Below, piece by piece: positions 37,193-53,075 of a DNA stretch of 64,000 nt (positions are counted from its first letter, which is position 1; every line of letters begins with the position of its first letter). The DNA is from Helicobacteraceae bacterium (GTDB lineage Bacteria; Campylobacterota; Campylobacteria; Campylobacterales; Sulfurimonadaceae): the NCBI GenBank assembly GCA_013138865.1, contig WTBY01000033.1, positions 489-64,488 of the forward strand, given 5' to 3'. The position numbers and the translations under genes are program-made. The notes under the pieces are model-generated. The model was not told the DNA's origin, ran no database searches, and saw nothing but the letters and a program-made list of their open reading frames with translations.

Positions 37193-38155
37193 ATGAAAAG
37201 AATAGCAATTTTATGTTCAGGTGGTGAAGCATCAGGAATGAATCCAGCACTTAAACGATTTGTTGAGTACTCTTATGAGTTAAATTTAACTCCTTTTTTT
37301 ATATATGATGGTTTAAATGGTCTTATAGATAACAATATAAAAGAAGCATCTTTTAAATTAGTAAGCGGAATTATTAGTCGTGGTGGAACTATTATAAGGA
37401 CATCAAGATCACCACGATTTAAAGAGCTTGAATTTAGAGAAATTGCATTTGAAAATTTAAAACAACATAATATAACTATGCTTGTTATTCTTGGTGGTGA
37501 TGGTACGATTAGAGCATTAGATATTTTCTATAAAGAGTTCAATATACCATTCTGTGCTATTCCTGCTACTATTGATAATGATATATTTGCTTCATCATAT
37601 AGCTTAGGTGTTGATACTGCTTTAAACTCCATTAAGAACTCTATCGACTCTATTCGCGATAGTGCCTCATCATTTAATAGAGCGTTTGTTATTGAGACTA
37701 TGGGAAGAGAGTGTGGTTATTTAGCACTTATTTCAGCTATGACATCTGGTGCAGAAATTTGTCTAATTCCTGAGGTTGAGTATGATCTTGAAAAAATAAG
37801 AACAAAAGCACTACAGCAAATTAAAAATGGTAGAACATATTTTATAGCGGTTGTATCTGAGGGAATTAAACAGAGTTCTGAAGAGATTGCTTTATGGTTT
37901 GAAAAGGAGTTAAATATAGAAGCTAGAGTTACAAAACTAGGACATACTCAAAGAGGTGGAAACCCAACTGTTTACGATCGCGTTATGGCTTACAAGTTTG
38001 TAACACTTGCTATTGATACGCTCAATAGTAACCACTCAAGTAGTGTTATCTGTTTTAACGACTCACACTTTGAGTATAAGAGTATAAGTGAAGTAAGTAA
38101 TCAGAAAAATATTTTAGACCAAGAACTTATAGAAGAGGCAAAAAAGTTTAACTAA
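37193..38155 (+). CDS. pfkA: ATP-dependent 6-phosphofructokinase
   Basis: Motifs GGDGT, PATIDNDI, METMGRECGYLA, LGHTQRGG. Confidence 0.9.
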   Translation: MKRIAILCSGGEASGMNPALKRFVEYSYELNLTPFFIYDGLNGLIDNNIKEASFKLVSGIISRGGTIIRTSRSPRFKELEFREIAFENLKQHNITMLVILGGDGTIRALDIFYKEFNIPFCAIPATIDNDIFASSYSLGVDTALNSIKNSIDSIRDSASSFNRAFVIETMGRECGYLALISAMTSGAEICLIPEVEYDLEKIRTKALQQIKNGRTYFIAVVSEGIKQSSEEIALWFEKELNIEARVTKLGHTQRGGNPTVYDRVMAYKFVTLAIDTLNSNHSSSVICFNDSHFEYKSISEVSNQKNILDQELIEEAKKFN

Positions 38156-38676
38156 TAACCTAGCTTTTGTATAACATTTGAGAGACTTGGTACACTTTCT
38201 AGTTTACTTTGAACTCTATATTTTTCTAGAGCAACAACAACTTTTTGCTCCAAAGAGTTAGGTTCTTGAAAAAGAATATTCAAAATAAACTCTCTACCGC
38301 CTATCTCATTAAAAACATAAATTTGCTCTTGGCTAAGTTTAAAACTCTCTCTTAGGTTCAACTTTTTAATAACATCTTTTTCACTTTTATTTAAACTTAT
38401 ACTCTCTTTTGAGACTACGCTTTTAATATCGTGCATTAAAGTCACAATAGCTTTGGCTTTAAGTATTAACTCTTCACTACTTTTTTCACTCTTTTCAAGT
38501 AGTGTAAAAAGTATTTGTGTTCCACTTTTAAACTCTATTTTAGTAGCCTCTTTTAGTGCATCTTTATAGCTACCATATATATTTACAACATCTAACGCTT
38601 CATCAATTAGATCACTATTTTTTATATTTAAACCTTCAAGCAGGTATTCTGCTTGTTTATGTTTAGAGAGTTCCAT
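38152..38676 (-). CDS. hypothetical protein, last gene of the chemosensory block
   Basis: 174-aa ORF, helical, no recognisable motif. It overlaps the upstream gene by 14 nt and the convergent pfkA stop by 4 nt. Confidence 0.5.
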   Translation of the reverse strand: MELSKHKQAEYLLEGLNIKNSDLIDEALDVVNIYGSYKDALKEATKIEFKSGTQILFTLLEKSEKSSEELILKAKAIVTLMHDIKSVVSKESISLNKSEKDVIKKLNLRESFKLSQEQIYVFNEIGGREFILNILFQEPNSLEQKVVVALEKYRVQSKLESVPSLSNVIQKLGY

Positions 38677-39514
38677 CTTTTAAGCCTTTCGCTATAGCTT
38701 CATCACTATAACCTTTTTTTCTATAATATTCAACTGCTCGTTTAGTATCATCAACTACTTTTGCTTCACTACTTTTAGCAATATATAGCATCTCTATTTT
38801 ATTATAGTTTTGTACTAATGAGCTTATATTCATAATGTTATTTCGTAAAAAACGTGCCTCTTTATCATCACTAAAGAGCCACCTGATCGCACCATTAAAC
38901 ATTTCAGGTGTTCTTCCAGTTTCTGCTATATGCAATCTTAAAATATACTGACCATCTTGATTTTTAAACTCTTGGCGTACAAAACTTGGTTGCAATTTTT
39001 TTCTAAATGTATCAAAATTATTTACAACTCTTTTTATATCTAAGTGAAGTGAATCACTCTGATCTTTGAGTGAATGAGGCTTATGAAAGTCAACACTAAC
39101 TTCTTCTTTAATAATAACAGATGAATTGACTACGTTAACAATAGGGTTATTACTCTCTTTAGGCTCATCTTCTGTCTCAACTAAGGAGTTCTGAGTAAAG
39201 AGTTTATTAAGAGCCTTATATTCGATCCTATACATACTTACTTCATTCCAATTACCGGAGTTAAAAACTTTTATCTCTATTAGTTTATCATTATAAAGTT
39301 TCTTTGTTAAGTCATCTAGTTGTTCAAGTCTGAAAAATGGAAAAAACTCTTGAAGTTCTTTTAGAGTAGTTTTATACCATGCAACACTATTTATAAACTC
39401 TGCAGAATTTTGAAGCCATAAATGAAGTTGTTGTATAAAAATAGCCTCATTTAAACCTAAAAGAGTAGCCATTTCGACTTGAATAACAATAGGGGCTTTA
39501 TTTGTCATAAACAT
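38663..39514 (-). CDS. hypothetical protein, possible N-terminal winged-helix (DnaD/replication-organiser-like) region
   Basis: 283-aa ORF. The N-terminal pattern LLGLNEAIFIQQLHLWLQNS...WYKTTLKELQEFFPF weakly resembles wHTH domains of replication-organiser proteins. The rest is unassigned. Confidence 0.45.
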   Translation of the reverse strand: MFMTNKAPIVIQVEMATLLGLNEAIFIQQLHLWLQNSAEFINSVAWYKTTLKELQEFFPFFRLEQLDDLTKKLYNDKLIEIKVFNSGNWNEVSMYRIEYKALNKLFTQNSLVETEDEPKESNNPIVNVVNSSVIIKEEVSVDFHKPHSLKDQSDSLHLDIKRVVNNFDTFRKKLQPSFVRQEFKNQDGQYILRLHIAETGRTPEMFNGAIRWLFSDDKEARFLRNNIMNISSLVQNYNKIEMLYIAKSSEAKVVDDTKRAVEYYRKKGYSDEAIAKGLKDGTL

Positions 39515-39525
39515 CTAACTAATAT

Positions 39526-39732
39526 TTATGATGGTTTAATCATTATCTTAAAATTTTCACCAAGAGATTGAATAATAAAGTCATGCTTTTTACAAAAATC
39601 TTTTTTCATAGTAGCTACCATACGTTCTGCTTCTTCCTTAGCCTCTAAACTGCTATCAAAGTTTTGAGTCTCAACCATACCACTTCTCAAAAAACATCTA
39701 CATGCATTTTGTACTTCTACTTTTGCCATCAT
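39526..39732 (-). CDS. small hypothetical protein (68 aa, three Cys)
   Basis: ORF packed 6 nt after the receiver gene and 11 nt before the next gene. No motif recognised. Confidence 0.4.
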   Translation of the reverse strand: MMAKVEVQNACRCFLRSGMVETQNFDSSLEAKEEAERMVATMKKDFCKKHDFIIQSLGENFKIMIKPS

Positions 39733-39738
39733 AAACTC

Positions 39739-40626
39739 CTAAAAATCAAAAATATCATCTTCTTCATCAGTTTTTACATCTACATTTTTTTGAAACTCTG
39801 CATTTTGAGGTTTCTTTTCAATAATATTTTCACTAACAGTCATATCAGACTCTACACTCGCTACTTTAGAAAGTTTAAAGCTTATGTTAGAATTATCTAT
39901 TTTATAATCTTTTGTAATAGAGTTTCTAGATAGAACAAGATTTATTAACTTTTCACTAACCTGCTCTACATTTACTATTGTAAAATATATATCTTCTTGA
40001 GACTCTTCAACTATAACTCTAACACTCTCTTTAAGTTTTTTTATAAAAACCTCACCAATAGAGAAAATAGTACGTATAATATCACTAAGTCCATCATACT
40101 TCTCTTCTGAGTCTAGTAGATAATACTCCCAAAACTCTGAAAGAGAGTCCTCTGAAGTTATATTAAATGTCATATGACGTGAGAAAATAGCATTTGTATA
40201 ACTGTTAATATTGTCACTACTTAAACGCTTGTGACTTCTTGAGTCTAAAAGTAGCAAATAGTTTGCTAAACGACTTTGAAAAATATTTACATTTATTGGT
40301 TTTGATATATAATCTTCAGCACCATTTGCAAGTATAGTTTTTTGACGTTGTATATCATCAACAGCAGAAACAGCAATAATTATCGAAGTAGAGTTTTTAC
40401 TTCTAATTATTTTAGTAGCTTCAATACCATCAACATTAGGCATCATAATATCCATGAAAATCAGATTGTATTGTTTTTCATTTGTTTTATCAATAGCGAT
40501 CTGACCATCTTCAGCTTCATCTATATCAAAAGAGACATCATCATTCTCTTCCATATAGTCTTCTAAAAGAAGATGTAAAATCATACGGTTATTTTTGTTA
40601 TCATCAACTATTAAAATATTAATCAT
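39739..40626 (-). CDS. response regulator receiver fused to an uncharacterised roughly 165-aa C-terminal domain
   Basis: REC motifs (ILIVDDN, LIFMDIMMPNVDG, SKP). The C-terminal half has no known output motif and an acidic tail. Confidence 0.75.
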   Translation of the reverse strand: MINILIVDDNKNNRMILHLLLEDYMEENDDVSFDIDEAEDGQIAIDKTNEKQYNLIFMDIMMPNVDGIEATKIIRSKNSTSIIIAVSAVDDIQRQKTILANGAEDYISKPINVNIFQSRLANYLLLLDSRSHKRLSSDNINSYTNAIFSRHMTFNITSEDSLSEFWEYYLLDSEEKYDGLSDIIRTIFSIGEVFIKKLKESVRVIVEESQEDIYFTIVNVEQVSEKLINLVLSRNSITKDYKIDNSNISFKLSKVASVESDMTVSENIIEKKPQNAEFQKNVDVKTDEEDDIFDF

Positions 40627-40672
40627 ACCAATACCTACTTTTTTTGAATTATTTATATTTTATCAAAAGTTT

Positions 40673-41413
40673 TTAAATTCTCTCTAAAAGTTCACTTGTA
40701 AATTTTTGATAATCACGTAAACCTTTTGAGCGCTTAGGGTTAAGAACAACAGGAGAAGCCGACTCAAACATTTTAGCTAGTTTTATATCTACCCCTATTG
40801 GTGAAAATAGTTTATTTTCACCAAAAGATTTTTTCACTTTCTCTAACATTAATTTATGTTCATTTATATGTGGGTTATACATAACAGGTAAAATACCAAT
40901 TTCTGCTATATCACGACCTATTTGTGTTGCTGATTGATATATTGCTCTCATCATCTGACCAACTGCTACTACACCTAAATGATGCGGTTGAAATGGGATC
41001 ACAACTGCGTCACATACTTCTAATGAATTTTTTAACAGTGCATCAAATGTAGGAGGAGTATCAATAATACAGTAGTCAAAAAACTCAGCTATTTTTTCAT
41101 GTTTAAAGCGACTTTTTAAGACACCTCTTAAGTCTGCGTATTCATAAACATCAAAAAATTCTAATGCCGAAGAGACAGTTAATCCATCATGAATAGTTGG
41201 TTTGAAAGTTTCACTTAGAGTTTTACCTAGAAATATAGAGTGAGCGCCACACTCTTCAGATAGTTGGCATCCTACTCCCATAGAAGCATGACCTTGTGTA
41301 TCAAAGTCTATAAGTAAAACAGAACCTTTTTTAGCTAACTCAGAAGCTAAGTTTACCGCTGTTGTTGTTTTAGCTGAACCACCTTTACGGTTACTAATTA
41401 CAATGGTCTTCAC
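40673..41413 (-). CDS. ParA/MinD-family ATPase (chemosensory-array partitioning type)
   Basis: Deviant Walker A ISNRKGGSAKTTT and ParA-like Walker A'/B regions. Embedded in the che block. Confidence 0.8.
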   Translation of the reverse strand: MKTIVISNRKGGSAKTTTAVNLASELAKKGSVLLIDFDTQGHASMGVGCQLSEECGAHSIFLGKTLSETFKPTIHDGLTVSSALEFFDVYEYADLRGVLKSRFKHEKIAEFFDYCIIDTPPTFDALLKNSLEVCDAVVIPFQPHHLGVVAVGQMMRAIYQSATQIGRDIAEIGILPVMYNPHINEHKLMLEKVKKSFGENKLFSPIGVDIKLAKMFESASPVVLNPKRSKGLRDYQKFTSELLERI

Positions 41414-41663
41414 TTAAACTAAATCCTTCTAAAACTTTTTGATAAATAAGTATCTTATCAGAAAACTTATAGTTACAAACACATAACTTTTTATATGCCA
41501 TAATTTGTTGTAAAAGTGCTAAGTGAACATCTTCACATGCAGTAAAATCAAATGTGATTTCAGTAGGTGCAACTTCTAGAAGGTGATCACGAAGTGCTGG
41601 AACTTCATCTTCGTACATAACTCCATCAAAAATTACTTCATTTTCTTTAATATTCATTCCCAT
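41394..41663 (-). CDS. small acidic hypothetical protein (weakly STAS-like)
   Basis: 89-aa ORF overlapping the parA-like start by 20 nt. The segment ITFDFTACEDVHLALLQQIM faintly resembles an anti-sigma-antagonist/STAS core. Confidence 0.35.
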   Translation of the reverse strand: MGMNIKENEVIFDGVMYEDEVPALRDHLLEVAPTEITFDFTACEDVHLALLQQIMAYKKLCVCNYKFSDKILIYQKVLEGFSLSEDHCN

Positions 41664-41678: not shown

Positions 41679-42452
41679 TTAACTATTTTCTGGTAATTCA
41701 ACTGATTTAATTATATTTACTAAATAGTTGTCAAGGTCTATAATACCTTCAAGTTCTAAAAATTTACTCACTTTATTACTCTCTTTTCTCTCTTTTATAC
41801 TTGAAGGATCAATATGAGCGATATCTACAATAGAGTCAACTTTAATTGCGAAAGTTCCTTTTTCACTACCTTGATAGATAAGTAGTTTTTGTAAAGACGC
41901 GGCAACTATGTCAAATTCTGCTATAAAAGTATCGATAGCACCCATTGTATGGTTATAAATTTCATATACTTCAGTCTCAACTTTTTTTATTGCTGCTTCT
42001 TGATCTACTTCTAAAAGTTCTAATATTTCAACAGCAGACGTATGAAGTGTTTTATGATAAGTATTAAGCTCTTTTAATATTTCACTTACATGCTCATCAT
42101 ACGATGTAAAACCATCTAACCATTTACCAAGTTCACATATATGAGGATTTGTAGTTTTATTAAAAGTGACTTTTTTAGTAACACTCATTTTTAGTGCTTC
42201 TACCCACTCTGTATGTTGAATTTTAAGTTTATCAAATAGAACTTTCAACTCACTCCCATAAGTAGGTAAGTTTATCATTTCACGAAAACCAACAACTTTT
42301 ATTACATTATCTTCATATGACATCATACCCTCTACAAGAGGGTGTGAATTAGGTATATCTGTAAGAATAGGTGCTTGTATAATTCTTTGGATATTTTCTA
42401 TACTAACAGCATACCTATTATTTTGTACTGCAAAAATCATTAAATCTTTCAT
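41679..42452 (-). CDS. CheW-like coupling protein with an internal CZB (chemoreceptor zinc-binding) domain
   Basis: CheW N-half (residues 1-70) and C-half (about 189-257) flank a CZB motif set: H80-x2-W, H104-x-C106-x-LGKW, H133-x3-H137. Confidence 0.8.
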   Translation of the reverse strand: MKDLMIFAVQNNRYAVSIENIQRIIQAPILTDIPNSHPLVEGMMSYEDNVIKVVGFREMINLPTYGSELKVLFDKLKIQHTEWVEALKMSVTKKVTFNKTTNPHICELGKWLDGFTSYDEHVSEILKELNTYHKTLHTSAVEILELLEVDQEAAIKKVETEVYEIYNHTMGAIDTFIAEFDIVAASLQKLLIYQGSEKGTFAIKVDSIVDIAHIDPSSIKERKESNKVSKFLELEGIIDLDNYLVNIIKSVELPENS

Positions 42453-42453
42453 A

Positions 42454-43221
42454 CTATTCTCCTATATTAATTTTATCTATTACACTACGAAGAACTTTTT
42501 GATGTTCTAAAACACCAACAATATTCATCTGTTTATTAGTTCTTCTTAAACGATCATCTGACTGAATAATAGAGCTATCAGTGTGTAATATATCATCTAT
42601 TTTATCAACAATTAAACCAAAAAGTTTATCTCCATTTCTCAATACTAAAAGTTTTTGCATTTCCTTAGATATATTTAAAGTCAAATTAGAAAGCTCATCT
42701 ATATATGAACATGTAGTTTTAAAAAGGGGTTTAACATTTAGCTCAAGTTCCTCAAGTGCTTTTTCTAAACTCTCTTTTCTAGCCTTAACAACTTCAATAC
42801 CACTCTCATGAAAATGGTTATGTGCTTGAACTAATTTTCTTAGTGTAGGTGCAACTTCTGAGTCAAAAGTGTGAAAAGAATCTAACCATTTCCCTAGTTG
42901 ACACATATGAGGATCAAAAGATTTAGTAAATTTTGTGTTATTTTCAACACTTAATTTAAGCTCGTTAAGCCATATAACATGTTGCTCTTTTAGAGAAAGG
43001 AATAGATCTTTTAAGTCATCAGAGTAAGCCGTTAAGTTAACCATTTTTCTAAAAGAGGCTACATTTATAACATTATCTTCAAAGCTCATCATACCTTCTA
43101 CTACAGAGTTAGGTTTGTTATTCTGTTCAAATTTTTCTAACATTATAATTCTATGCACTTGGTCTAGAGGAAGTGCATAATTTAACTTACCTACTGTAAA
43201 AAGTATATAACTTGTTTGCAT
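42454..43221 (-). CDS. CheW-like coupling protein with an internal CZB domain (paralog)
   Basis: Same split architecture: H81-x2-W, H105-x-C107-x-LGKW, H134/H136/H138. CheW-like sequence lies on both sides. Confidence 0.8.
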   Translation of the reverse strand: MQTSYILFTVGKLNYALPLDQVHRIIMLEKFEQNNKPNSVVEGMMSFEDNVINVASFRKMVNLTAYSDDLKDLFLSLKEQHVIWLNELKLSVENNTKFTKSFDPHMCQLGKWLDSFHTFDSEVAPTLRKLVQAHNHFHESGIEVVKARKESLEKALEELELNVKPLFKTTCSYIDELSNLTLNISKEMQKLLVLRNGDKLFGLIVDKIDDILHTDSSIIQSDDRLRRTNKQMNIVGVLEHQKVLRSVIDKINIGE

Positions 43222-43226: not shown

Positions 43227-46025
43227 TTAACCTACTTTAGCTTCCATCTCATCTTTTAGTTGATGAGCAATACCTAAAATACCTAAAGGATCAATTGCTA
43301 AAATAATTTGTCCATTACCAAGAAGTGCAGTACCACTAAAGATCTGATGACCTTCCATAACACCCTCAAGTGGTTTTTGAACAACGTCTAGTTGACCTAA
43401 GAACTCATTAACTACGATCGCAATTAAGTTACCTTTTACTTCAAGAACAACTACAGATAGAGCTTCATCATCTAAAGCATCTTCGTTAAGCATAGACTTA
43501 ATAAATAGTAGAGGAATAACTTCTCCACGAAGATATACAAAAGCTTCATTATGTAAATACTCTATTTCACTTCTTGCGATTTTTACAGTCTCATTTACGT
43601 TATCCATAGGAATACCATAGTGAATATCATTCATAAAAATATGTAAAAGTGAAGTAACAGCAAGTGAAACAGGAATAGCTAACGTAATTGTAGTACCTTG
43701 GTTTGGAACTGTAACAATATTAATAGTTCCACCAAAACCTTCAATTGACTTTTTAACAACATCCATACCAACACCACGACCACTAAACTCACTAATTTCA
43801 TCAGCAGTTGAGAGACCAGGAAGAAGAACTAACTCAGCTTTTTCATTGTCACTAAGAGCGTCAATTTGCTCCATAGTCATAAGTCCAGCATCAATAACTT
43901 TAGAAATCACTTTAGTTGTATTAATACCAGCACCATCATCTTTGATCTCGATAATAATTTTATCAGACTGCGCAAATGCTCTTAAATCAACATTACCTTC
44001 TGCTGTTTTGCCTTTATCTGTTCTTGTTTCAGGATCTTCTATACCATGATCAAGAGAGTTTCTCATAATATGAATCATTGGATCAGCTAACATTTCGATC
44101 ATATTTTTATCTAATTTAGTCTCTCCACCATCCATACTTAGGTTTACTTTTTTACCAAGTTTTTTAGAGATGTCACGAACAAGTTTAGGATAGCGATCGA
44201 AAACATAAGAGATCGGAAGCATACGCATAGACATAATAAGGTCTTGTAGTTGTTCTGATAGACGGTTTATAAAAGTATATTTTTCCATAATTCCGCGTGA
44301 GATCATCTCTTTAGACATATCATCAACACCCTCAGCTAAATAAGGTAGTGAGTTTTTAGCAACAAGTAGTTCTCCAACGATATTCATTAAGTTGTCAATT
44401 GACTCTTGATCAATTTTAACTGTTTTTCCAACAACAGCTTTAGCTTTAGCTGGTGCAGTTTTTTTAGCATCATCTTTTGGCTCAGGAGTAGGTGTTGCTT
44501 TAACAGTTTTCACAACTGGTTCAGGTGTAACTTCTTTTACAACTTCTGGTGCTTTTACTGCAGGTATAGGTGTAGTTTTAACAACTTTAACAACTGGTGT
44601 AGCTACAACTTCTTTAACAGCTTCTACTACTGGAGCAGATTCACTTTCAAGGCCAAGTTGAGATTTAATCCAAGAGATAGTCTCTTCTGTTGAGTTAAAA
44701 GTTGCAGGCATATTAGCGTAGTACTTACGAGTAAGTTCAAGTATAGCTACAACACGAGGTAATAAAGTATCATCACCTTGCATAGTCTCTAATGCTAATA
44801 GTTGTTGCTCTAAAATAATTTGTAAATTAGTTTCAATATGCTCATCTACAACTACTATTTCAGTAGCAGGTACTTCTTCTTTAACTATTTCAACTGGAGT
44901 AGGTGTATCTTTGCTAACTTCAGTTGTAGCAGGTGAAGTAGCTACAATGCCATCAGCACTATAAGCAGTTCCTAAATCTAGTGTACTAAAGAATGCATTT
45001 AATTCAGCAAAGTCTTCATCTTTTATAGAGTCCATAATCATTAAGAATCTATTTAATTGTGCATATTGAATAGTCTCTTGACCTATTAAAGGTAAAGTTT
45101 TTTCAATTTCTGCTTTCAAAGAAGCTTTATCGCTGGAAGCTAAAAAGCCAGATACGGTTGCATTTAACTCTTTTAAAACATCAAGTTGTAAGTCATGTTC
45201 ACCACTATCAATTTCAAGAAGTGCAGTAGACGAAAGAGGTGAAATTTTAATCTCATCTAAGAAGTTAAATAATGATTCTTCTATTTCATCATAAGTACCA
45301 TACACAACAGCAGTAATTTGACAACGAAGTAAAAGCCCTTCTTCATCTTCACCACTTAAAAGACCTTTAGCACAAGTTTCACTCATACATACGTGAATAT
45401 CTATAACAGCATCACCTAAAAGCGAAAGTGTATATATTGGATCATTACCATAAACCATACTAGACTCATCAATATCAAAAATAATACCATAAAGTCTAGG
45501 TTGAGCAAATGCTGTCTCATCCATTTCAGGTGTAGTTAGTTCTAGTTTATTACTGTTGCGATTAAGTGCAGTAAATGGTAAGTTAACAATTTCAGCAGGT
45601 GACTCTAACATTGCAAATGGTGCTTCCCATGCATCAGCTTCATTACTTTTTCCCATAGATGCACGAAGTTCAGATACGATCTGTTCAACTGTCTCAGGAT
45701 CAGAATCAACGATATCTTCAGTCTCTTCAGCTGCCTCAACAAGGTTTAAAACTTCATCAAAAGCATTAAATAGTGACTCTGTCATAGACTCTTGAAACTC
45801 TATTTGACCTGATCTTAAAAGATCAAGAAGATCTTCAGCATGGTGAGTGATCTCTTTTACAGATTCAAAACCAACAATACCACTACCACCTTTAAGTGTA
45901 TGAGCCGCACGAAAGACCGAGTTTAGAAGTTCTGGATCATCTCCACCAATTGCTTCTATATTTTGATCAATAAAAGCTAAGTTTTCTCTGGCTTCTTGTA
46001 AAAACTGTTCTAATAATGGATTCAT
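43227..46025 (-). CDS. cheA: chemotaxis histidine kinase CheA (long form, no receiver)
   Basis: Hpt AAHTLKGGSG, dimerisation/HATPase boxes (HIMRNSLDHGIE, DDGAGI, GRGVGMD) and a C-terminal CheW-like P5. About 430 aa between Hpt and the kinase core are unassigned, including a Pro/Val/Lys-rich stretch. Confidence 0.95.
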   Translation of the reverse strand: MNPLLEQFLQEARENLAFIDQNIEAIGGDDPELLNSVFRAAHTLKGGSGIVGFESVKEITHHAEDLLDLLRSGQIEFQESMTESLFNAFDEVLNLVEAAEETEDIVDSDPETVEQIVSELRASMGKSNEADAWEAPFAMLESPAEIVNLPFTALNRNSNKLELTTPEMDETAFAQPRLYGIIFDIDESSMVYGNDPIYTLSLLGDAVIDIHVCMSETCAKGLLSGEDEEGLLLRCQITAVVYGTYDEIEESLFNFLDEIKISPLSSTALLEIDSGEHDLQLDVLKELNATVSGFLASSDKASLKAEIEKTLPLIGQETIQYAQLNRFLMIMDSIKDEDFAELNAFFSTLDLGTAYSADGIVATSPATTEVSKDTPTPVEIVKEEVPATEIVVVDEHIETNLQIILEQQLLALETMQGDDTLLPRVVAILELTRKYYANMPATFNSTEETISWIKSQLGLESESAPVVEAVKEVVATPVVKVVKTTPIPAVKAPEVVKEVTPEPVVKTVKATPTPEPKDDAKKTAPAKAKAVVGKTVKIDQESIDNLMNIVGELLVAKNSLPYLAEGVDDMSKEMISRGIMEKYTFINRLSEQLQDLIMSMRMLPISYVFDRYPKLVRDISKKLGKKVNLSMDGGETKLDKNMIEMLADPMIHIMRNSLDHGIEDPETRTDKGKTAEGNVDLRAFAQSDKIIIEIKDDGAGINTTKVISKVIDAGLMTMEQIDALSDNEKAELVLLPGLSTADEISEFSGRGVGMDVVKKSIEGFGGTINIVTVPNQGTTITLAIPVSLAVTSLLHIFMNDIHYGIPMDNVNETVKIARSEIEYLHNEAFVYLRGEVIPLLFIKSMLNEDALDDEALSVVVLEVKGNLIAIVVNEFLGQLDVVQKPLEGVMEGHQIFSGTALLGNGQIILAIDPLGILGIAHQLKDEMEAKVG

Positions 46026-46034: not shown

Positions 46035-46403
46035 CTATCGTTTCAATAAAATTTCTATATAAGCTTTAAGTTGATCAGGCTTAATAGGTTTTGTTTCAAA
46101 TAAGTTTGCACCTACTCTATACGCTTCTAATTTATCACTCTCTTTAGCTTGAGTTGTAATCATAATAACCGGAGTTAATTTATATTTAGGTTGTTTACGT
46201 AACTCTAAGACAAAAGAGTAACCATCCATTACAGGCATATTAACATCAACCAAATATAAAGATACATCGTTATCTAAACTACGTTCTAACGCTTCCATTC
46301 CATTTTCAGCTTCAACGATATCAATACCAATTTCACCTAAAATTGCACCATGATAACTTCTTACAGTTTTTGAATCATCTACTACCATAATTTTTGACAT
46401 CAT
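46035..46403 (-). CDS. cheY: CheY-like single-domain response regulator
   Basis: 122-aa REC (VVDDS, LVDVNMPVMDG, TKP). Confidence 0.85.
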   Translation of the reverse strand: MMSKIMVVDDSKTVRSYHGAILGEIGIDIVEAENGMEALERSLDNDVSLYLVDVNMPVMDGYSFVLELRKQPKYKLTPVIMITTQAKESDKLEAYRVGANLFETKPIKPDQLKAYIEILLKR

Positions 46404-46408: not shown

Positions 46409-46780
46409 CTAACGTAAACGCAATACTCTAGTTATTGCTTGTTCTAATTGCTCTGGATTAAATGGTTTAACAATCCAACCAGTAAGACCTAACTCTTTTC
46501 CTTGCTTTTTCAACTCATCTTTTGTTTCAGTTGTAAGCATTAATACAGGAGTCCTCGAAGTAACTTCTAACTTACGAAGCTCAATCATAAACTCAAAACC
46601 ATTCATAACTGGCATATTTAAGTCAGTTATAATAAGGTCTGGTTTTACACCTGCATTAAGATCAGCAAGTGCTGCTTGTGCTTCACTATACTGTTTTACA
46701 TCTATTGGCATTGAATTTGTGATCATACGTGTTGAAGCTAATGCTGTTTCACTATCATCTACAAAAATTACTAATGGCAT
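46409..46780 (-). CDS. cheY: CheY-like single-domain response regulator (second copy)
   Basis: 123-aa REC (FVDDS, IITDLNMPVMNG, VKP). Confidence 0.85.
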   Translation of the reverse strand: MPLVIFVDDSETALASTRMITNSMPIDVKQYSEAQAALADLNAGVKPDLIITDLNMPVMNGFEFMIELRKLEVTSRTPVLMLTTETKDELKKQGKELGLTGWIVKPFNPEQLEQAITRVLRLR

Positions 46781-46792: not shown

Positions 46793-47623
46793 TTATTTCT
46801 GGTACACTAAAGTGTCACCAATTTTTTTAGCTTTATAAACTGAAACAATTCTACTCATATACTCAGCATGTCCTAAAAGTACATATCCATCTGGATTTAA
46901 CAGATCGTAAAATGTCATTGCAACCTCTTTACGTGAAGCATCATCAAAATAGATAAGCATATTTCTAGAGAAAATAACATCAAACTTACCAAGTTTTCTA
47001 ACATCTGTCTTATCAAAAATATTACATACTTTAAAGTCAACAGTACCTATTAGATCATCTATAAGTTTGTACCCAAACTGTTTTTTATCAAAGTAAGCTG
47101 ATAGAACTTTTTTTGGTATTGCATGAACAGCGCGATCAGAATAGTTTGCTTTTTTTGCTTTTTCAATTACAGTAGAATCAATATCTATACCAACTATTTC
47201 TATATCTCTCTCTTCTATAAGTTTAGCTTCTTCAAGAAGATGTAAGATCATAGAATATGGCTCTTCACCCGTAGAGCTTGGTGCAGAAAGAATTCTTAAA
47301 ATTTCTCCAGCTGGTTTTGAAGCATGAATTTCAGGTAAAATATGGTTAACTAAAACTTCAAACTGATTAACTTCACGATAAAAATATGTTTCATTTACAG
47401 TTACCGCATTCATTAACTCTTGAAATTCTAGCCCATCAGCATCATCAAAACGAAGTTTATAAAAATATTTTCTAAAACTATCAAACTCTAATTCAGTACA
47501 ACGAGATGACATATATTTTACTAACTTATCAAAATGCTTATCTACTTCTAGGTAGATTCCACTTTTTCTATATATATATTCACTAAGTTTATTAAAATTC
47601 TCTTCTGATAACACGACTGACAT
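46793..47623 (-). CDS. cheR: chemotaxis protein methyltransferase CheR
   Basis: N-terminal helical domain plus SAM-binding motif ILSAPSSTGEEPYS and FSRNMLIYFD. Confidence 0.9.
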   Translation of the reverse strand: MSVVLSEENFNKLSEYIYRKSGIYLEVDKHFDKLVKYMSSRCTELEFDSFRKYFYKLRFDDADGLEFQELMNAVTVNETYFYREVNQFEVLVNHILPEIHASKPAGEILRILSAPSSTGEEPYSMILHLLEEAKLIEERDIEIVGIDIDSTVIEKAKKANYSDRAVHAIPKKVLSAYFDKKQFGYKLIDDLIGTVDFKVCNIFDKTDVRKLGKFDVIFSRNMLIYFDDASRKEVAMTFYDLLNPDGYVLLGHAEYMSRIVSVYKAKKIGDTLVYQK

Positions 47624-47624: not shown

Positions 47625-48251
47625 TTAGTTATCCTTAATAGCTTTGATAGCTTTATCTACACCAAAAGAGACATAAGCATCATCATGGAACCTAGTTTTA
47701 AGATCTTCTAATAATGGAATATCTTCTTCTTCACCTATTTCACCTAAATAATCAACGGCCGTCATTGCAACATTTATATCTTCTTCACTGTCTAAAAGCT
47801 CCACTAGCATATCACGTGACTCTGCAAAGTTAACATCACCAAGAACATTAATAGCAAAAATTCTAAGATCACGATCATCACCTATTAAAAACTTAACTAT
47901 ATAGTATTTAATTGAGTCACCAAAATCTTGTAACATACAAATACCTAAATTTCTAACATAAGCGTCATCTAGTTTCAAAAGGTCCATAATAGACTCTATC
48001 GGAGCAGTTTTACCATCCATTTTAGAGATAGCAGCAGCTATATGAGCCTCAACATTTTTTTCAGTCTCTTCTTCAACTAGTTTAGAAATTAAAAGTTTTG
48101 GACCCTCATTAAATGTCATCATTTGATCAACAGCATGAACACTATGATCAAAATTTATGGAGTTTTCAAAATATTCATCAGCTTCTTCTAAAGAGTCAAA
48201 TGTTGGTAACTCTTCTATAACTTGAGCTGTATGTTTTTTAACTAATGCCAT
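47625..48251 (-). CDS. HEAT-repeat (PBS-lyase-like) protein
   Basis: At least three HEAT-like units (DAYVRNLGICMLQDFGD, DRDLRIFAINVLGDV, DINVAMTAVDYLGEIG). Confidence 0.65.
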   Translation of the reverse strand: MALVKKHTAQVIEELPTFDSLEEADEYFENSINFDHSVHAVDQMMTFNEGPKLLISKLVEEETEKNVEAHIAAAISKMDGKTAPIESIMDLLKLDDAYVRNLGICMLQDFGDSIKYYIVKFLIGDDRDLRIFAINVLGDVNFAESRDMLVELLDSEEDINVAMTAVDYLGEIGEEEDIPLLEDLKTRFHDDAYVSFGVDKAIKAIKDN

Positions 48252-48264: not shown

Positions 48265-49374
48265 TTATCTTATAGTAACAATTTTTTTAACAATTTGTGT
48301 AAAAGATAGCTGTTCCATTACTCCACCATTTTCAAAAGCAACACGTGGCATACCATAAACAGTACAACTATCTTCGCTTTCACCCATAGTAAAACCACCA
48401 GCTTCTCTGATCGCTACCATACCTTCTGCACCATCATCACCAATACCAGTTAAAAGGACAGAAGTTATTTTTGCTCCACCAAATACTTTTAAACCACTTA
48501 AAAACGTCTCATCTACACTTGGTTTAAAAAAGCGCCCTTTATCGTTGTCATTTTCACTTACAACTATAGTTCCTGAAACTTTTTTGGTAAATTCCATATG
48601 CGATCCACCACGTGCTAAATAGATATTTCCAGGGCAAATTTCCATACCGTGTTTAGTATGGTGTACATTTAGCTTAGATGATTTATTTAGTCTACCAGCA
48701 AATGCTTCAGTAAACTGTGCAGGCATATGTTGAACAATACAAACCGCGTGAGGAAAATCAGCAGGCAAGGATGAACATATTTGCTCAATTAGCCCAGGTC
48801 CACCAGTAGACGCACCTACAAAAATAATTTTTTTTATATCTTTTGAAGATGTAGTTGGTTTTACTATTTCATTACTTTTAGATACTCTTTCAGTACGATT
48901 AGGTCGTTCAGATATTTCATTTTCAGGTTCATTTCTTCTTATTGGTCTACGAGCTCTATTTGCTTTTATTCTACGTTTTGATATACGACTTAATGCCTGA
49001 AGTTTTTCTATAATATCTTCAGAGTTTTCATGTTTACCGATATTCATAGTACCAGGTTTTGTAACGTAATCAATTGCACCTAAGTCTAATGCTTCCATCG
49101 TTGAAGTAGCATTGTCAGAAGTTAAAGAGCTTACCATAAGAATAGCAGATGGGTTTTTTTTCATAATTTCACCAACAGCAGTAAGACCATCCATCACTGG
49201 CATATTAATATCCATAGTAATTACATCATAATCAGTAGCACATGCTTTATCAACACCCTCTTGACCATTTTTTGCAGTCTCTATTTCAAAATCTAGTCCA
49301 CTACCTTTAATAAGTTCAGACAACTGTTTTCTAACTAGTGCTGAATCGTCGACTATTAGTACCTTTTTACTCAC
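48265..49374 (-). CDS. cheB: chemotaxis methylesterase CheB (REC plus esterase)
   Basis: REC N-terminus, linker, GASTGGP and the CheB esterase pattern. Confidence 0.9.
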   Translation of the reverse strand: MSKKVLIVDDSALVRKQLSELIKGSGLDFEIETAKNGQEGVDKACATDYDVITMDINMPVMDGLTAVGEIMKKNPSAILMVSSLTSDNATSTMEALDLGAIDYVTKPGTMNIGKHENSEDIIEKLQALSRISKRRIKANRARRPIRRNEPENEISERPNRTERVSKSNEIVKPTTSSKDIKKIIFVGASTGGPGLIEQICSSLPADFPHAVCIVQHMPAQFTEAFAGRLNKSSKLNVHHTKHGMEICPGNIYLARGGSHMEFTKKVSGTIVVSENDNDKGRFFKPSVDETFLSGLKVFGGAKITSVLLTGIGDDGAEGMVAIREAGGFTMGESEDSCTVYGMPRVAFENGGVMEQLSFTQIVKKIVTIR

Positions 49375-49387: not shown

Positions 49388-50752
49388 TTAATTAAATATA
49401 TCATTAATTTTAAATAATAATACAAGTCTATTGCCACCATCTAAATGTAGTACATTTGAAAAAAGAGCTGCGTTATCTTTTGCTTCACGAATATCACTAT
49501 CTAAAATATTATAAATTCCACTTACACTATCAACTCTAAAACCCATTTGAGTACCATTAATATTACAAATAATTATTTTTTCTTGGACACTTTTTACTTC
49601 TTGCACACCTAATCGCCTATGAAGAGAAACAAGAGTTACAATCTGACCACGTATGTTTATAATTCCATCAACTCTAGAGTCACTAAGAGCAACATTTGTA
49701 GAGTCTATAACATCCATAATCTCTGCAACATACTCTATATCAAATGCATATTCTACGCTGTCAAGTTTAAAAACAACAACTTCTAACTCGCCCCTAACTT
49801 GAAGAGCTACTTCAGTTTCTGAAGAGTTTGAAAATTTGTCATTTTCAGCAATTAATGGGATCAAGGCTTGAGAAGAGATAATAGATATTAACTGTTCACC
49901 AGAATGTATTACACCAGATATTTTTGTATCTTGAAAATTAATAGGCATACGCTCTAATTCTGATTGTTCATACTCTGCAATATCTAAAATCTGATCAACT
50001 ATAAGTCCAATTTTTTTGTCATTTACATAAACTATAAGTACTCTATTTTTATCACTACTAGTAGCTTCTAAATTATAGTACATTCTAAGATCAGCTATAA
50101 TCATTAACTCTTCTCGAAGTGAAACAAGACCTAAAATTTCAGCAGATGAACCAGCAATATCACTATAATCAGTAGGAACTGTAATAATCTCTCTTAAATC
50201 ATCAATATGCACGGCAAACTGTTCATTCGCCATCTTAAAGACTAAGTATCTCTCTTTATTAGATATTTTTTCAACTACTATTCCAGACTTTGTTCCATCT
50301 TTGATCTCAATAGGATCATATTTTTTTAACTTAACCCCTGAGCTTAAAGTTTTAATATCTAAGACTTGTATTATTTTATTATTATTATTATTATGGTAAA
50401 TTGCACAAATAGCACTTTCATCACTTGAATCAACTGATTCAAGAGACTCTTCATCTACACTCAATGTAATTGTGATAGATGATACTAGCATAGCCATCTT
50501 TTTATCATCATCATTTAATAATAAAAGTCTACTATCTTCATTTTCAACATCAACTTGTCCAATATCTAACAAAATATTCAGATCAAGTGCCGGTGTAATA
50601 TCACCAGCAACAGCACAAAGTCCACGGACTTCTCTTGGCGAGAGTGGTAAAACTGTTAGGTTTGGAACTCTAAGAATTTGGTCTATTTTGTTAGTATCAA
50701 TAGCATAGCTGATATCATCATGCTCTATGACTAATATCTCTTTAATTTGCAT
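49388..50752 (-). CDS. triple CheW-domain coupling protein
   Basis: Three successive CheW-like modules in 454 aa, each with the ...YAI/FAV...V.EI... and ...G.IVD.I... patterns. Confidence 0.8.
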   Translation of the reverse strand: MQIKEILVIEHDDISYAIDTNKIDQILRVPNLTVLPLSPREVRGLCAVAGDITPALDLNILLDIGQVDVENEDSRLLLLNDDDKKMAMLVSSITITLSVDEESLESVDSSDESAICAIYHNNNNNKIIQVLDIKTLSSGVKLKKYDPIEIKDGTKSGIVVEKISNKERYLVFKMANEQFAVHIDDLREIITVPTDYSDIAGSSAEILGLVSLREELMIIADLRMYYNLEATSSDKNRVLIVYVNDKKIGLIVDQILDIAEYEQSELERMPINFQDTKISGVIHSGEQLISIISSQALIPLIAENDKFSNSSETEVALQVRGELEVVVFKLDSVEYAFDIEYVAEIMDVIDSTNVALSDSRVDGIINIRGQIVTLVSLHRRLGVQEVKSVQEKIIICNINGTQMGFRVDSVSGIYNILDSDIREAKDNAALFSNVLHLDGGNRLVLLFKINDIFN

Positions 50753-50755
50753 AAA

Positions 50756-52636
50756 TTAACCTTGTTGTAGCTCATCTGCCATAACAGCTAACTCTTCAAC
50801 ACCATCACCAATATGTGAAATTGTCTCTATAATTAACTCACTAGCTTTTCTTGATTCCATAGCATTTCTTGCCGAAAGCTCAACTGCTTTTTGGATCTCT
50901 GTAACACCAACCATACCTTGGTTTAATCCTTCAAGATTTTGATCATTTACAGATTTAAGTCCCGCGTAACGATCTATTAAATCTACTAACATATCTGAAA
51001 TTTTATCTATATCAGTAAGAAGAGAGTCTATTCTTGTATGCTCTTTTCCTTGATCACTTAAAAGTTGACCCCAGTCATTTCTAACTGTATCAATTTCAGC
51101 ATTCATAGACTCAATAGTATCATTAATTTTTTCAGTATTTGACTCAGAATCTTTTGCTAAGTTACGAATATCAGCTGAAACAACTGCAAAACCTTTTCCA
51201 AACTCACCAGCACGTGCAGCCTCAATAGAGCCACTGATTGCAAGCATATTTAACTGAATAATAGAGTTAGAAATATTTCCAACTGTTTTGTCAACATTTC
51301 TAGTCTCTTTAACAATAACTTCTATCTCATTATTAGCAGAGTTACCCTCATTTATAGAATTTTGAAATGCCTCTTTAATTTTTACGATTGTAGATTTTAC
51401 TGAAAGGAATGAAGTTTTAACTAAATCGAAGTTACGACGAGCAATATTAATAAGTTCATCAATATCTTTAGCCGCAGATAGACCTATCTCTAAGTTATCT
51501 TTATTTTTAAGTGCGCTTTGGTTTGTCGTAGTAGAACTAGCTTCAATTTGGTTAAGAGCACTAGTTACATCTACAAGAGCAGATTGGATCTCTTCCATAC
51601 TACCACCAATAGCGTCAGCACTACTAGCAATCTCTTCAGCAGATTTCATAGAGTCTGTTGAGTATTTAAGCTCTTCTGCTAAGTTTGAAAGCTCTTTAAT
51701 ATCGTCTTCTGTTTGAACCAATGCAGATGACTGAACATCTATTCCATTTAAAGTTTTTTCAACTGAAAGTGCAATTGAGTGAGAAGAGTCAGCAATATCT
51801 TGACTTCCATCATTTACACTTTGAGCAGCTTCACCTAAAGTAGTAGTATAAGAGTGAATACTTCTAGCCGCTTCAACTGAATAGATTGCTATTTTAGTTA
51901 GTTCTTCCATTTTAAGACTTAACTCTGTACCAGTTTCACCAGTTGTAGAGATTATGTCAGTAGTACCAACGATACTTTTTATAATATCATCTATACTACT
52001 TTGAATTTTATTTACTAACTCAGAGATAAATTCTGCATTTTTCTCACTCTCACCTGCAAGTGCACGAGTTTCATCAGCAACAACTGCAAAACCTTTACCA
52101 TGCTCTTTAGCACGACTTGCTTCGATCGCAGCATTAAGTGCAAGAAGATTAGTCTGATCAGCAATTTTAGCAATAAAACCAACAGCTTCACCAATATTTT
52201 CAGAAGATAGTTTTAACTCTTCTGATTTTTTAGAAGATGCTTTTGCAACTTCTACTGCACTGTTCATACGACCTACACTAGAATTAATTGTACTAACAGC
52301 ACCTATAATACTATCACCAGTAGCAGATGTTGAACTAATAACAGTATCAATTGTAGAGTTCATACGATTTATGTTCGCGTTAATAGCTTTTACGTTTTTA
52401 AGAGCTTGTTCACTTGCTCCACTATTCTCTTCAGCTGCAGTTGCAATTTGCTCCATTGAAGACTTAAGTTCTTCGATCGCACTTACACTCTCTTGAGCGT
52501 TGTTTAATATATTAGATGCAACACCTGCAATACCTTCACTAATTTGCTGTTGTTTAGCAAGCGTTCTTTGGCGACGCTTATTATCACTTGCTCCACTTGA
52601 AACTACCGCTGAGTTAGATTTTTTAACTAATGCCAT
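50756..52636 (-). CDS. soluble methyl-accepting chemotaxis protein with two signalling hairpin tips (DosM-like)
   Basis: No TM segment. Tip 1 is QTNLLALNAAIEASRAKEHGKGFAVVADETRALA (aa 161-194). Tip 2 is QLNMLAISGSIEAARAGEFGKGFAVVSADIRNLA (aa 461-494). Confidence 0.9.
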   Translation of the reverse strand: MALVKKSNSAVVSSGASDNKRRQRTLAKQQQISEGIAGVASNILNNAQESVSAIEELKSSMEQIATAAEENSGASEQALKNVKAINANINRMNSTIDTVISSTSATGDSIIGAVSTINSSVGRMNSAVEVAKASSKKSEELKLSSENIGEAVGFIAKIADQTNLLALNAAIEASRAKEHGKGFAVVADETRALAGESEKNAEFISELVNKIQSSIDDIIKSIVGTTDIISTTGETGTELSLKMEELTKIAIYSVEAARSIHSYTTTLGEAAQSVNDGSQDIADSSHSIALSVEKTLNGIDVQSSALVQTEDDIKELSNLAEELKYSTDSMKSAEEIASSADAIGGSMEEIQSALVDVTSALNQIEASSTTTNQSALKNKDNLEIGLSAAKDIDELINIARRNFDLVKTSFLSVKSTIVKIKEAFQNSINEGNSANNEIEVIVKETRNVDKTVGNISNSIIQLNMLAISGSIEAARAGEFGKGFAVVSADIRNLAKDSESNTEKINDTIESMNAEIDTVRNDWGQLLSDQGKEHTRIDSLLTDIDKISDMLVDLIDRYAGLKSVNDQNLEGLNQGMVGVTEIQKAVELSARNAMESRKASELIIETISHIGDGVEELAVMADELQQG

Positions 52637-52652
52637 AATATTTACCTTTTTC

Positions 52653-53075
52653 CTAGTCTAATGTAGCGTAAAGCTCAATTGATTTCTTAATATCTTCACG
52701 AGTTGGTTTCACACGAATTGATACATATTTAGTATTTCCACTTTTGTCAATTGAACGAAGAACTGTTGCATATACCCAGTAATGTCCTCCACCTTTACGT
52801 GCATTTTTAACAAAACCAGTCCAAAATCCTTTTTCTTGGACATCGTCCCATAAGCTTTTAAATGCAGCACGAGGCATATCTGGATGGCGAACAACATTAT
52901 GTGGCTGACCAATAAGATCACTCGGGCACATATTTGCTATTTTAAAAAAAGAGTCACTTGCATAAGTCACTATACCCTTTTCATCTGTTTCTGATAACAA
53001 GTATAAGTCATCATATAATACTTCACCATCATCTAAAAATGTTAGACCTTCTGTGCTTACTGTACAATCTGCCAT
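52653..53075 (-). CDS. standalone Aer/CetB-like PAS (FAD-type) sensor protein
   Basis: GQPHNVVRHPDMPRAAFKSLW...KNARKGGGHYWV closely follows the E. coli Aer PAS core (GQPHNMVRHPDMPKAAF...KNRRKNGDHYWV). Confidence 0.85.
   Translation of the reverse strand: MADCTVSTEGLTFLDDGEVLYDDLYLLSETDEKGIVTYASDSFFKIANMCPSDLIGQPHNVVRHPDMPRAAFKSLWDDVQEKGFWTGFVKNARKGGGHYWVYATVLRSIDKSGNTKYVSIRVKPTREDIKKSIELYATLD

Follow-up and report, generated by a model that had tools for sequence, protein, structure and literature searches.

Organization of the chemosensory block

A 64,000-nucleotide (nt) stretch of the genome assembly of a Helicobacteraceae bacterium (GCA_013138865.1, contig WTBY01000033.1, positions 489 to 64,488 of the forward strand) carries on its minus strand a compact block of chemosensory genes running from position 53075 down to 38152. 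The whole of this 64,000-nt stretch is referred to here as the window. An earlier reading made from the letters alone (hereafter, the sequence-only reading) had described the block as 17 minus-strand open reading frames (ORFs) that overlap or are separated by at most 46 nt, and the ORF list returns exactly 17 at the same coordinates. The gaps along these ORFs are, in order, 16, 3, 13, 13, 1, 12, 5, 9, 5, 1, 15, -20, 46, 6, 11 and -14 nt, with negative values for overlaps, and the non-coding total within the 14.9-kb block comes to about 156 nt. AGG/GGAG-like ribosome-binding sites are found upstream of most of the 17 starts. The coordinates of all features are collected in Table 1.

Table 1. 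Features of the chemosensory block and its flanks, in the order of the minus strand. Coordinates are positions in the window; pLDDT, predicted local distance difference test.
Feature	Coordinates	Strand	Length (residues)	Evidence or remark
rpsO	53252-53560	-		flank of block
8-bp inverted repeat (AATAGGGT…ACCCTATT) directly past the rpsO stop	53217-53243	-		read from sequence
PAS-only protein, Aer-type	52653..53075	-	140	Pfam PAS_3 4e-10
DosM-type soluble receptor, two signalling hairpin tips	50756..52636	-	626	Pfam, two MCPsignal stretches
CheW3, three CheW domains	49388..50752	-	454	Pfam CheW x3, 2e-70
CheB methylesterase with REC domain	48265..49374	-		Pfam; NCBIfam CheB 2.5e-105, above curated cut-off
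HEAT-repeat protein	47625..48251	-	208	HEAT_2 7e-16
CheR methyltransferase	46793..47623	-		Pfam CheR 5.5e-49
CheY-like response regulator 1	46409..46780	-	123	Response_reg 9e-23; median 80% identity, 33 loci
CheY-like response regulator 2	46035..46403	-	122	Response_reg 8.5e-25
CheA kinase	43227..46025	-	932	Pfam Hpt 4-95, H-kinase_dim 534-600, HATPase_c, CheW/P5
CheW with inserted CZB, extra paralogue	42454..43221	-	255	Pfam CheW N half 5-69, CZB 81-145, CheW C half
CheW with inserted CZB, orthologue of the Sulfurimonadaceae F9 'W1' after CheA	41679..42452	-	257	Pfam
STAS-fold protein	41394..41663	-	89	AlphaFold pLDDT 92.6; Foldseek
ParA/Soj-type P-loop ATPase	40673..41413	-	246	AAA_31, CbiA, ParA, MipZ
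REC-x (REC, uncharacterised middle domain, DDIFDF C-terminus)	39739..40626	-	295	Response_reg 7e-24
68-residue protein, last conserved gene	39526..39732	-	68	alignment: C10, C12, C46, H49 invariant (CxC…CxxH)
DnaD-type protein, N-terminal domain related to replication initiators	38663..39514	-	283	PHROG 6493
ORF specific to this contig	38152..38676	-	174	no homologue in 41 loci
pfkA	37193-38155	+		flank of block

Searches against Pfam and NCBIfam bear out the domain calls and the gene order that had been read from the sequence. The first nine products match PAS_3, two stretches of MCPsignal, three copies of CheW, CheB, HEAT_2, CheR, REC, REC and CheA, respectively. The last eight comprise two proteins with CheW and CZB, an 89-residue protein without a match, a ParA/AAA_31 protein, a REC domain joined to a region of unknown character, and three proteins of 68, 283 and 174 residues that have no match. 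A scan of the 17 proteins with 19-residue hydropathy windows returned no membrane helix, in keeping with the earlier statement that no component has a transmembrane segment. The two highest windows both fall in soluble domains: one, scoring 1.98, in the ATPase/P5 sheet of CheA, the other, scoring 1.63, near the N-terminus of the 283-residue protein, where that protein matches DnaD-type replication proteins.

Extent of the conserved system

To place the block among its relatives, an alignment of the CheW-CZB proteins was scanned over one genome per species (GTDB). This gave 41 related loci, onto whose ORFs the window proteins were mapped; the counts given here and below are subject to the truncation of many of these loci by contig ends or by the 10-kb limit set for the flanks. 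All of the loci belong to Sulfurimonas, Sulfuricurvum or other Sulfurimonadaceae. The order that recurs in them is PAS, DosM, CheW3, CheB, HEAT, CheR, CheY1, a gene of about 130 codons that is missing from the window, CheY2 and CheA, followed by one or more CheW paralogues, the 89-residue protein, ParA, sometimes a REC-PAS histidine kinase, REC-x and the 68-residue protein. A CheW paralogue is present in all 41 loci, the 89-residue protein and CheA in 40 each, ParA in 39, REC-x in 36, the 68-residue protein in 33 and DosM in 32. The ParA-like gene that had been singled out in the sequence-only reading is thus a regular member of the cluster.

The 283- and 174-residue proteins, pfkA and rpsO are found in none of the 41 loci within the 10-kb flanks. 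In close relatives, in which ParA is 81–82% identical to that of the window, the block stops at the gene for the 68-residue protein, and the next gene encodes a CTP_transf_3 cytidylyltransferase on the opposite strand. Because the block of the relatives ends at this point and the last two ORFs recur in none of them, the conserved system, as delimited by homology and gene order, is made up of 15 of the 17 genes (53075-39526), and the last two ORFs lie outside it. The sequence-only reading had taken all 17 genes as one functional system, a view that fails on the absence of these two ORFs from every relative and on the phage- and plasmid-type, DnaD-like character of the 283-residue protein. It had also placed the block between pfkA and rpsO and proposed that interval as a landmark for comparative genomics. 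The two genes do flank the block here, but the position is peculiar to this contig: in the relatives, both are missing from the 10 kb on either side of the cluster.

Two loci (L030 and L032) are permuted: ParA and the 89-residue protein stay by CheA-CheW, and the REC and 68-residue genes are not beside ParA. In Sulfuricurvum loci the gene for the 89-residue protein is sandwiched by two cheW paralogues, and in Sulfurimonas aquatica at least this gene is present. Several Sulfurimonas loci have a REC-PAS-HisKA-HATPase kinase inserted between ParA and REC-x. Sulfuricurvum loci (L005, L008, L033, L034, L036, L038 and L041) differ in what lies past the 68-residue gene, where they encode a REC-bearing hybrid kinase of 1056–1450 residues, then a REC protein about 295 residues long and a protein containing PAS.

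The core genes belong to the F9 class

Homology and synteny identify the core nine genes as a chemosensory cluster of the F9 class, the type represented by Vibrio cholerae cluster I. The architectures reported as unique to this class are DosM and CheW3 (Mo et al. 2022), and both are present in the window as a soluble double-tip receptor and a triple CheW protein. The resemblance to V. cholerae cluster I noticed in the sequence-only reading is therefore well founded. With that cluster (VC1394-VC1406), and with the F9 clusters of Campylobacterota, the window shares the soluble DosM with two signalling domains, the triple CheW, the series CheB-(HEAT)-CheR-CheY-CheA and the lack of membrane components. 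In V. cholerae the F9 components form flat cytoplasmic arrays of two layers, which DosM stabilizes.

The usual F9 order is DosM-W3-B-.-R-Y-A, and most F9 orders read 'B.R' (Mo et al. 2022, Table S6). The same authors give [DosM W3 B. R Y. Y A W1] for Sulfurimonas gotlandica GD1 and Sulfuricurvum sp. 17-40-25, the two Campylobacterota in which the set is complete. The order in the window, DosM-W3-B-x-R-Y-Y-A-W, agrees with this Campylobacterota form, and the match is gene for gene through the first CheW after CheA. One of the 41 loci (L034) comes from Sulfuricurvum sp. 17-40-25 itself and is collinear with the window, with identities of 76% for DosM, 75% for CheR and 60% for CheA. Since this locus, which is listed as F9, is both collinear and similar, and since the gene order agrees with Table S6, the core of the window can be assigned to a catalogued class.

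Published descriptions of F9 end at 'W1'. Beyond this point the window adds the CZB-inserted CheW paralogues, the STAS-fold protein, ParA, REC-x and the CxC…CxxH protein. No such tail is seen in the V. cholerae order, which Table S6 of Mo et al. (2022) gives as [DosMW3B.RYA.YM]. The window further departs from the published clusters in the PAS-only Aer-type gene ahead of DosM and in the absence of the small gene between the two CheY genes. The sequence-only reading had not recognized the combination as a described system. This does not hold for the F9 core, which was listed by Mo et al. (2022) together with the CheW after CheA, nor for the CheW-CZB architecture, which had also been catalogued, but it stands for the conserved tail of STAS-fold protein, ParA, REC-x and CxC…CxxH protein, which appears to be undescribed.

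The PAS-only protein belongs by sequence to the Aer PAS family. It matches the structure of the Escherichia coli Aer PAS domain (8dik) with an E-value of 9e-30 over 120 residues, in support of the earlier Aer-like call, and also matches the PAS domain of NifL. Its gene is upstream of DosM in 26 of the 41 loci, with a median identity of 85%, and most of the remaining loci are cut before that point. On these grounds the protein is predicted to bind flavin adenine dinucleotide (FAD) and is a candidate redox input for the DosM of the window, which has no sensor domain. The receptor has a short N-terminal tail and no hydrophobic segment (maximum hydropathy 1.03). Its two tips, at residues 178 and 478, are marked by the motifs AKEHGKGFAVV (at 176) and AGEFGKGFAVV (at 476). 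The arms measure 148–150 residues, or about 21.4 heptads per arm and about 43 per hairpin, which as an estimate from residue counts would be near the class 44H. A sensor is absent in 98% of DosM proteins, and a sensory domain is present in just two, both of which carry CZB (Mo et al. 2022).

The gene for the HEAT-repeat protein occupies the slot of the unnamed gene that intervenes between CheB and CheR in F9 clusters. In CheA, about 430 residues separate P1 from the dimerization domain, and the median identity of this protein over 40 loci is 60%. An F9-specific insertion in CheA has been reported in a preprint, and the P1-P3 stretch of the window protein is in line with that report. In the window no more than 5 nt separate the two CheY genes, at the point where a gene for a protein of about 130 residues sits in 30 of 33 related loci (for example, L004:6398-6805). 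Invariant in this protein is a motif of the QYQDIIxQQ type, and its C-terminus is acidic-aromatic (EIEFF). A CheZ-like identity was considered for it on motif resemblance and found no backing in the PDB profile search or in Pfam.

CheW paralogues with an inserted CZB domain

The two genes that follow CheA had been described in the sequence-only reading as CheW::CZB proteins. Both domains are indeed present, but Pfam, the structural model and the alignment agree that CZB is inserted inside the CheW fold and not fused to its end. In both paralogues the CheW profile is matched up to about position 65–66 of 138, followed by CZB and then by CheW again. In an AlphaFold model (pLDDT 74), a helical bundle at residues 68–188 is framed by beta strands at the two ends of the chain, and in Foldseek comparisons CheW structures match the full chain while the CZB domain of DgcZ matches the middle. 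The zinc-ligand positions H81, C107, H134 and H138 show no variation and line up with the zinc-site motifs of DgcZ; the His/Cys/His/His site is shared with the CZB sensors TlpD and DgcZ.

A homologue of the 257-residue paralogue is found at every related locus, with a median identity of 51%; for the CheW proteins of the block the medians are 43–51%. At 11 of the loci the protein in the same position is a CheW of 142–152 residues, which aligns to both halves of the window protein with a clean gap of about 118 residues at CZB. The CZB domain is therefore best described as an insertion gained or lost within the family. In a full search with the hidden Markov model, 59 representatives scored E<1e-30 and 1051 scored E<1e-10; among them are multi-CheW proteins of 620–770 residues with the same insertion in one domain.

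The members of this CheW subfamily, with or without CZB (window 41679-43221 and L041:9992-11137), have Arg in place of Glu38 and Glu in place of Arg62, the pair linked by a salt bridge in CheW (Ortega et al. 2013). The usual polarity is kept in CheW3 and in the P5 domain of CheA. Proteins with CheW and CZB have been catalogued as 1.4% of CZB proteins (Perkins et al. 2021) and are also listed by Muok et al. (2023), in both cases without experimental study. In comparison to these entries, which share the two domains, the present analysis demonstrates an insertion into the CheW fold, its presence or absence among orthologues, and a host CheW in which the Glu38/Arg62 pair is reversed.

The conserved tail: STAS-fold protein, ParA, REC-x and the CxC…CxxH protein

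The gene for the 89-residue protein overlaps the start of the ParA gene by 20 nt at its 3' end. Its homologues number 606, and in all of the 120 matches listed the length is 89 or 90 residues. The model has the topology beta-beta-alpha-beta-alpha-beta-alpha, and the best structural matches from Foldseek are RsbV (E 8.8e-4) followed by SpoIIAA and MlaB, because of which the protein is assigned to the STAS domains. A weak match to Pfam STAS_2 in 8 of 28 members, and the name of one UniRef entry, concur. Residues C42, D44, H46 and C87 are invariant. From manual comparison, H46, which lies in an invariant D44-x-H46 motif at the start of helix 2, appears to occupy the position of the phospho-serine of SpoIIAA. 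What is shared with SpoIIAA, RsbV and MlaB is the predicted fold and topology; the window protein differs from them in being shorter, in the His at the apparent phospho-serine site, in its conserved Cys and His residues and in its coupling to a ParA ATPase. No gene of the HATPase_c_2 or PP2C type, RsbW-like kinase or sigma factor that might serve as a partner kinase, phosphatase or target is found in the window block.

In the ParA protein the Walker A motif is of the deviant type (KGGSAKTT), and the whole length of the chain matches solved ParA/Soj structures (E 1e-22), the closest of which are chromosomal ParA/Soj proteins. With a median identity of 74% it is among the most conserved products of the block, and the relatives returned by the homologue search are all 75–83% identical. 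An extra C-terminal amphipathic helix is not seen in this protein.

In 25 aligned relatives REC-x has a length of about 440 residues and consists of the REC domain, a middle domain of about 130 residues, a linker, a helical domain of about 145 residues and an invariant DDIFDF end. In the window protein the helical domain is missing cleanly and in frame, and the DDIFDF end is kept (by comparison with L004:14139-15458 and 24 other loci). The deletion is bounded by a pair of similar motifs: VFDY, where the missing domain starts, and IFDF, at the C-terminus. Profile searches against Pfam and PDB sequences gave nothing credible for the middle and C-terminal domains.

For the 68-residue protein, Pfam, NCBIfam and PHROG gave no match. 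Invariant clusters of Cys and His are seen in three components of the system, namely CZB (H, C, H, H), the STAS-fold protein (C42, H46, C87) and the 68-residue protein (CxC…CxxH). The recurrence of such clusters suggests a shared metal or thiol-redox theme.

A distant locus with ParA beside a CheW scaffold

A more remote locus (L048:8708-18270; GCA_964479735.1, contig CAYZNT010000005.1) contains in order ParA, a TPR protein, a multi-CheW protein with CZB, CheB, HEAT, CheR, CheY and CheA, so that the slot between CheB and CheR is again taken by a HEAT protein. The multi-CheW protein is 768 residues long with CZB inserted in one CheW domain, and CheA has two Hpt domains. No receptor gene is found within 10 kb of this locus. 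Its ParA is 30% identical to that of the window, and the kinase core of its CheA 36%. With this ParA-TPR-multiCheW arrangement, a ParA gene with a small adaptor-like protein beside an F9-like CheW scaffold is seen at least twice.

Contig-specific ORFs and the wider neighbourhood

The 283-residue protein is matched by the DnaD-like helicase loader family PHROG 6493 (9e-18) and by a PHROG family annotated as 'replication initiation protein'. Its residues 2–118 also give tblastn matches to phage and plasmid genes with DnaD domains. The 174-residue ORF has no match in Pfam, NCBIfam or PHROG. The two ORFs are probably of mobile-element origin and may be a remnant of such an element, an origin that hangs on the homology of the replication protein, since a search found neither meaningful repeats flanking them nor a viral-contig relative of the 283-residue protein.

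At the other end of the block, the inverted repeat past the rpsO stop could conceivably be the terminator of rpsO; after it comes the 176-nt, AT-rich leader of the chemosensory cluster. The repeat has no clear T-run, and the assignment is weak because the terminator scan missed it. No Rfam family is matched anywhere in the window, and no tRNA genes are found in it.

Beyond rpsO and divergent from it, about 1 kb upstream of the F9 block, the plus strand carries an Rrf2-family regulator and flhA (FHIPEP, 742 residues) at 53678-56321; the presence of flhA indicates that the organism is flagellated. On the far side of pfkA, the minus strand has three genes, with a cyclic-nucleotide-binding domain, a glucosaminidase domain and a metallo-beta-lactamase fold, the last of which matches class-II cyclic AMP phosphodiesterases (34990-37105); these genes may form a cyclic-nucleotide signalling unit. 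Also on the minus strand, 29220-31109 encodes a sensor histidine kinase whose double sensory domain is of the dCache_3 type.

Discussion

On balance we favour the view that 53075-39526 encodes a membrane-free, double-layered F9 array together with an accessory module that is specific to Sulfurimonadaceae, with FAD-PAS and CZB as its inputs and with ParA and the STAS-fold protein in charge of its positioning. The class of the core follows from homology and synteny; its inputs, its positioning and the downstream role of the tail we infer from gene content and order. Homology makes DosM, CheW3 and CheA the known components of the two baseplates, CheB and CheR the adaptation enzymes, and the two CheY proteins the targets of phosphorylation. 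The DosM of the window has no sensor domain, as is the case for 98% of DosM proteins, and input would therefore have to come from accessory proteins.

One candidate is the Aer-type PAS-only protein, which could dock on the array and report the state of FAD or the redox state. The split energy-taxis receptor CetA/CetB of Campylobacter offers an analogy for a PAS-only protein that works with a sensor-less receptor. With Aer and CetA/CetB the window shares the Aer-type PAS sequence and a PAS-only gene beside a sensor-less receptor; it differs from them in that the partner receptor is the soluble double-tip DosM and is not anchored in the membrane. A second candidate is the pair of CheW paralogues after CheA, which would join the baseplate, where the Cys/His zinc site of CZB may tune coupling to the kinase as zinc or thiol-reactive oxidants change. 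Input to F9 arrays through CZB would seem to recur, since the only two sensor-bearing DosM proteins in the set of Mo et al. (2022) carry this domain.

Positioning would fall to ParA and the translationally coupled STAS-fold protein, which could act as the partner of the ATPase or as an adaptor to the CheW paralogues, so that the array is placed and partitioned on the nucleoid. Precedents for such a role are PpfA and TlpT, which act on the cytoplasmic cluster of Rhodobacter sphaeroides, and ParC and ParP of the polar arrays of Vibrio. The window resembles the ParC/ParP case in having a ParA-like ATPase within the che cluster beside the gene of a protein with the CheW (SH3-like) fold, and the PpfA case in having a cytoplasmic array as the presumed cargo. 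Unlike ParP and TlpT, no partner with an N-terminal ParA-interacting region was found in the window, and the gene coupled to ParA encodes the 89-residue STAS-fold protein; the chemosensory class also differs, being F9 in the window and F6 in Vibrio cluster II. Downstream of these steps, REC-x and the CxC…CxxH protein may serve as a phosphate sink, a relay or an output, and the process controlled in the cell could be the rotation of flagella, their biosynthesis or another one.

That the accessory genes go with the F9 core is indicated by the order CheA-W-(W)-STAS-ParA-REC-68-residue protein across the 41 loci, by the overlap of the STAS and ParA genes, by the STAS gene lying inside the cheW pair in Sulfuricurvum, by the median identity of ParA (74%, against 43–51% for the CheW proteins), and by the distant locus L048. 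A more specific proposal would make the STAS-fold protein both the cargo adaptor and the ATPase partner of a ParA dedicated to the F9 array, with the Cys/His sites tying coupling, assembly or inheritance of the array to zinc or to the thiol-redox state. We offer this as a speculative and, by our own estimate, unlikely scheme; if true, it would reveal a new type of ParA partner and a route of sensory input that runs through the baseplate and not through receptors.

Several points weigh against the array and positioning scheme that we favour. We know of no STAS protein that serves as a partner of ParA, and in the window ParA a His is found, by manual reading of an alignment, at the position of what we take to be the DNA-binding Arg of Soj. 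The likening of this ParA to ParC and PpfA is by family and gene context. In the CheW-CZB proteins the CheW fold starts at the N-terminus itself, which leaves no place for the ParA-binding extension that defines ParP. Because their Glu38/Arg62 pair is swapped to Arg/Glu, these paralogues may bind partners unlike those of ordinary CheW, and because about a quarter of the loci carry a CZB-less CheW in the same position, sensing by CZB would not be essential to the system. The counts returned by promoter and terminator scans were no higher than those in shuffled sequence, and matches at this chance level neither set operon boundaries nor support a single transcript. Finally, the window copy is without both the 130-residue inter-CheY gene and the C-terminal helical domain of the REC protein, and the loss of these two elements may reflect streamlining or decay.

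Among the alternatives, the most serious concerns the output. The F9 system may act not on taxis but on flagellar biosynthesis or another programme, through REC-x and, in relatives, the hybrid kinases; this is a substantial possibility, if somewhat short of an even chance, and one that is compatible with the array anatomy proposed here. The structure of F9 arrays is known from V. cholerae, and the only output phenotype comes from Rhodospirillum centenum Che2, a cluster with a tripartite CheW that is classed as F9 (Mo et al. 2022), whose mutants are hyper-flagellated or aflagellate and still chemotactic. Deletion of the F9 cheA of V. cholerae has no detectable phenotype under standard conditions. 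F9 clusters mostly coexist with another class that runs the motor, and the relatives of the window add REC-PAS histidine kinases and large hybrid kinases by the cluster, all of which would suit an output other than taxis. Yet two stand-alone CheY proteins and a full CheB/CheR pair are the equipment of a motor-directed pathway, F9 itself counts as one of the flagellar (F) classes, and flagella are present in 97% of its carriers. The flhA gene of the window speaks for flagellation and does not decide the output.

A second alternative leaves ParA tied to the array without partitioning on the nucleoid. ParA would instead direct targeting to the pole in the manner of ParC, or control assembly or number as FlhG and MinD do, with the STAS-fold protein switching its state. 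The His at the presumed DNA-binding position fits this idea, as do the facts that ParC is not seen on the nucleoid and acts through a polar landmark, and that FlhG acts by ATP-dependent switching of partners. We nevertheless give it a low probability: for membrane-free cytoplasmic arrays the nucleoid-based case of PpfA is the only precedent, the closest solved relatives of the window protein are chromosomal ParA/Soj, and the extra C-terminal amphipathic helix is missing.

It is also conceivable that the four genes from the STAS-fold to the 68-residue protein are an independent neighbouring unit, either a ParA system for some other cargo or a STAS-based regulatory switch. None of the four proteins has a domain specific to chemotaxis, the widest gap in the block (46 nt) falls between the ParA and REC genes, some relatives have an extra kinase gene at the same point, and in the permuted loci L030 and L032 ParA is found without adjoining REC and 68-residue genes. 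These same two loci keep ParA and the STAS-fold protein attached to CheA-CheW, however, and the pair follows a cheW paralogue in 39–40 of the 41 loci. The nesting of the STAS gene within the cheW pair of Sulfuricurvum, and the opening of the distant F9-like locus L048 with ParA and a small adaptor-like protein by a multi-CheW gene, likewise argue for a link to the core. A switch of the STAS type is disfavoured by the lack of an RsbW-like kinase, a PP2C phosphatase or a sigma factor in the window block and by the apparently invariant His at the phospho-serine position, as compared manually with SpoIIAA. An independent unit is accordingly quite improbable in our judgement. That all 17 genes form one chemosensory system is scarcely credible, for although the 283- and 174-residue ORFs share the strand of the genes before them, and an 11-nt gap and a 14-nt overlap make read-through transcription likely, they recur in none of the 41 loci, the block of the relatives ends at the 68-residue gene, and the kinship of the 283-residue protein is with replication initiators of phages and plasmids.

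The Sulfurimonadaceae variant of F9 brings together, in one conserved cluster, candidate inputs in the form of FAD-PAS and of CZB within CheW, and a candidate positioning ATPase. It would thereby make testable what F9 systems sense, whether signals can enter through the baseplate and how membrane-free arrays are inherited. Experiments appear feasible, as the cultured Sulfurimonas gotlandica GD1 has the F9 core (Mo et al. 2022). The hosts of this system inhabit oxic-sulfidic interfaces, a setting in which behaviour guided by redox conditions is central to their ecology.

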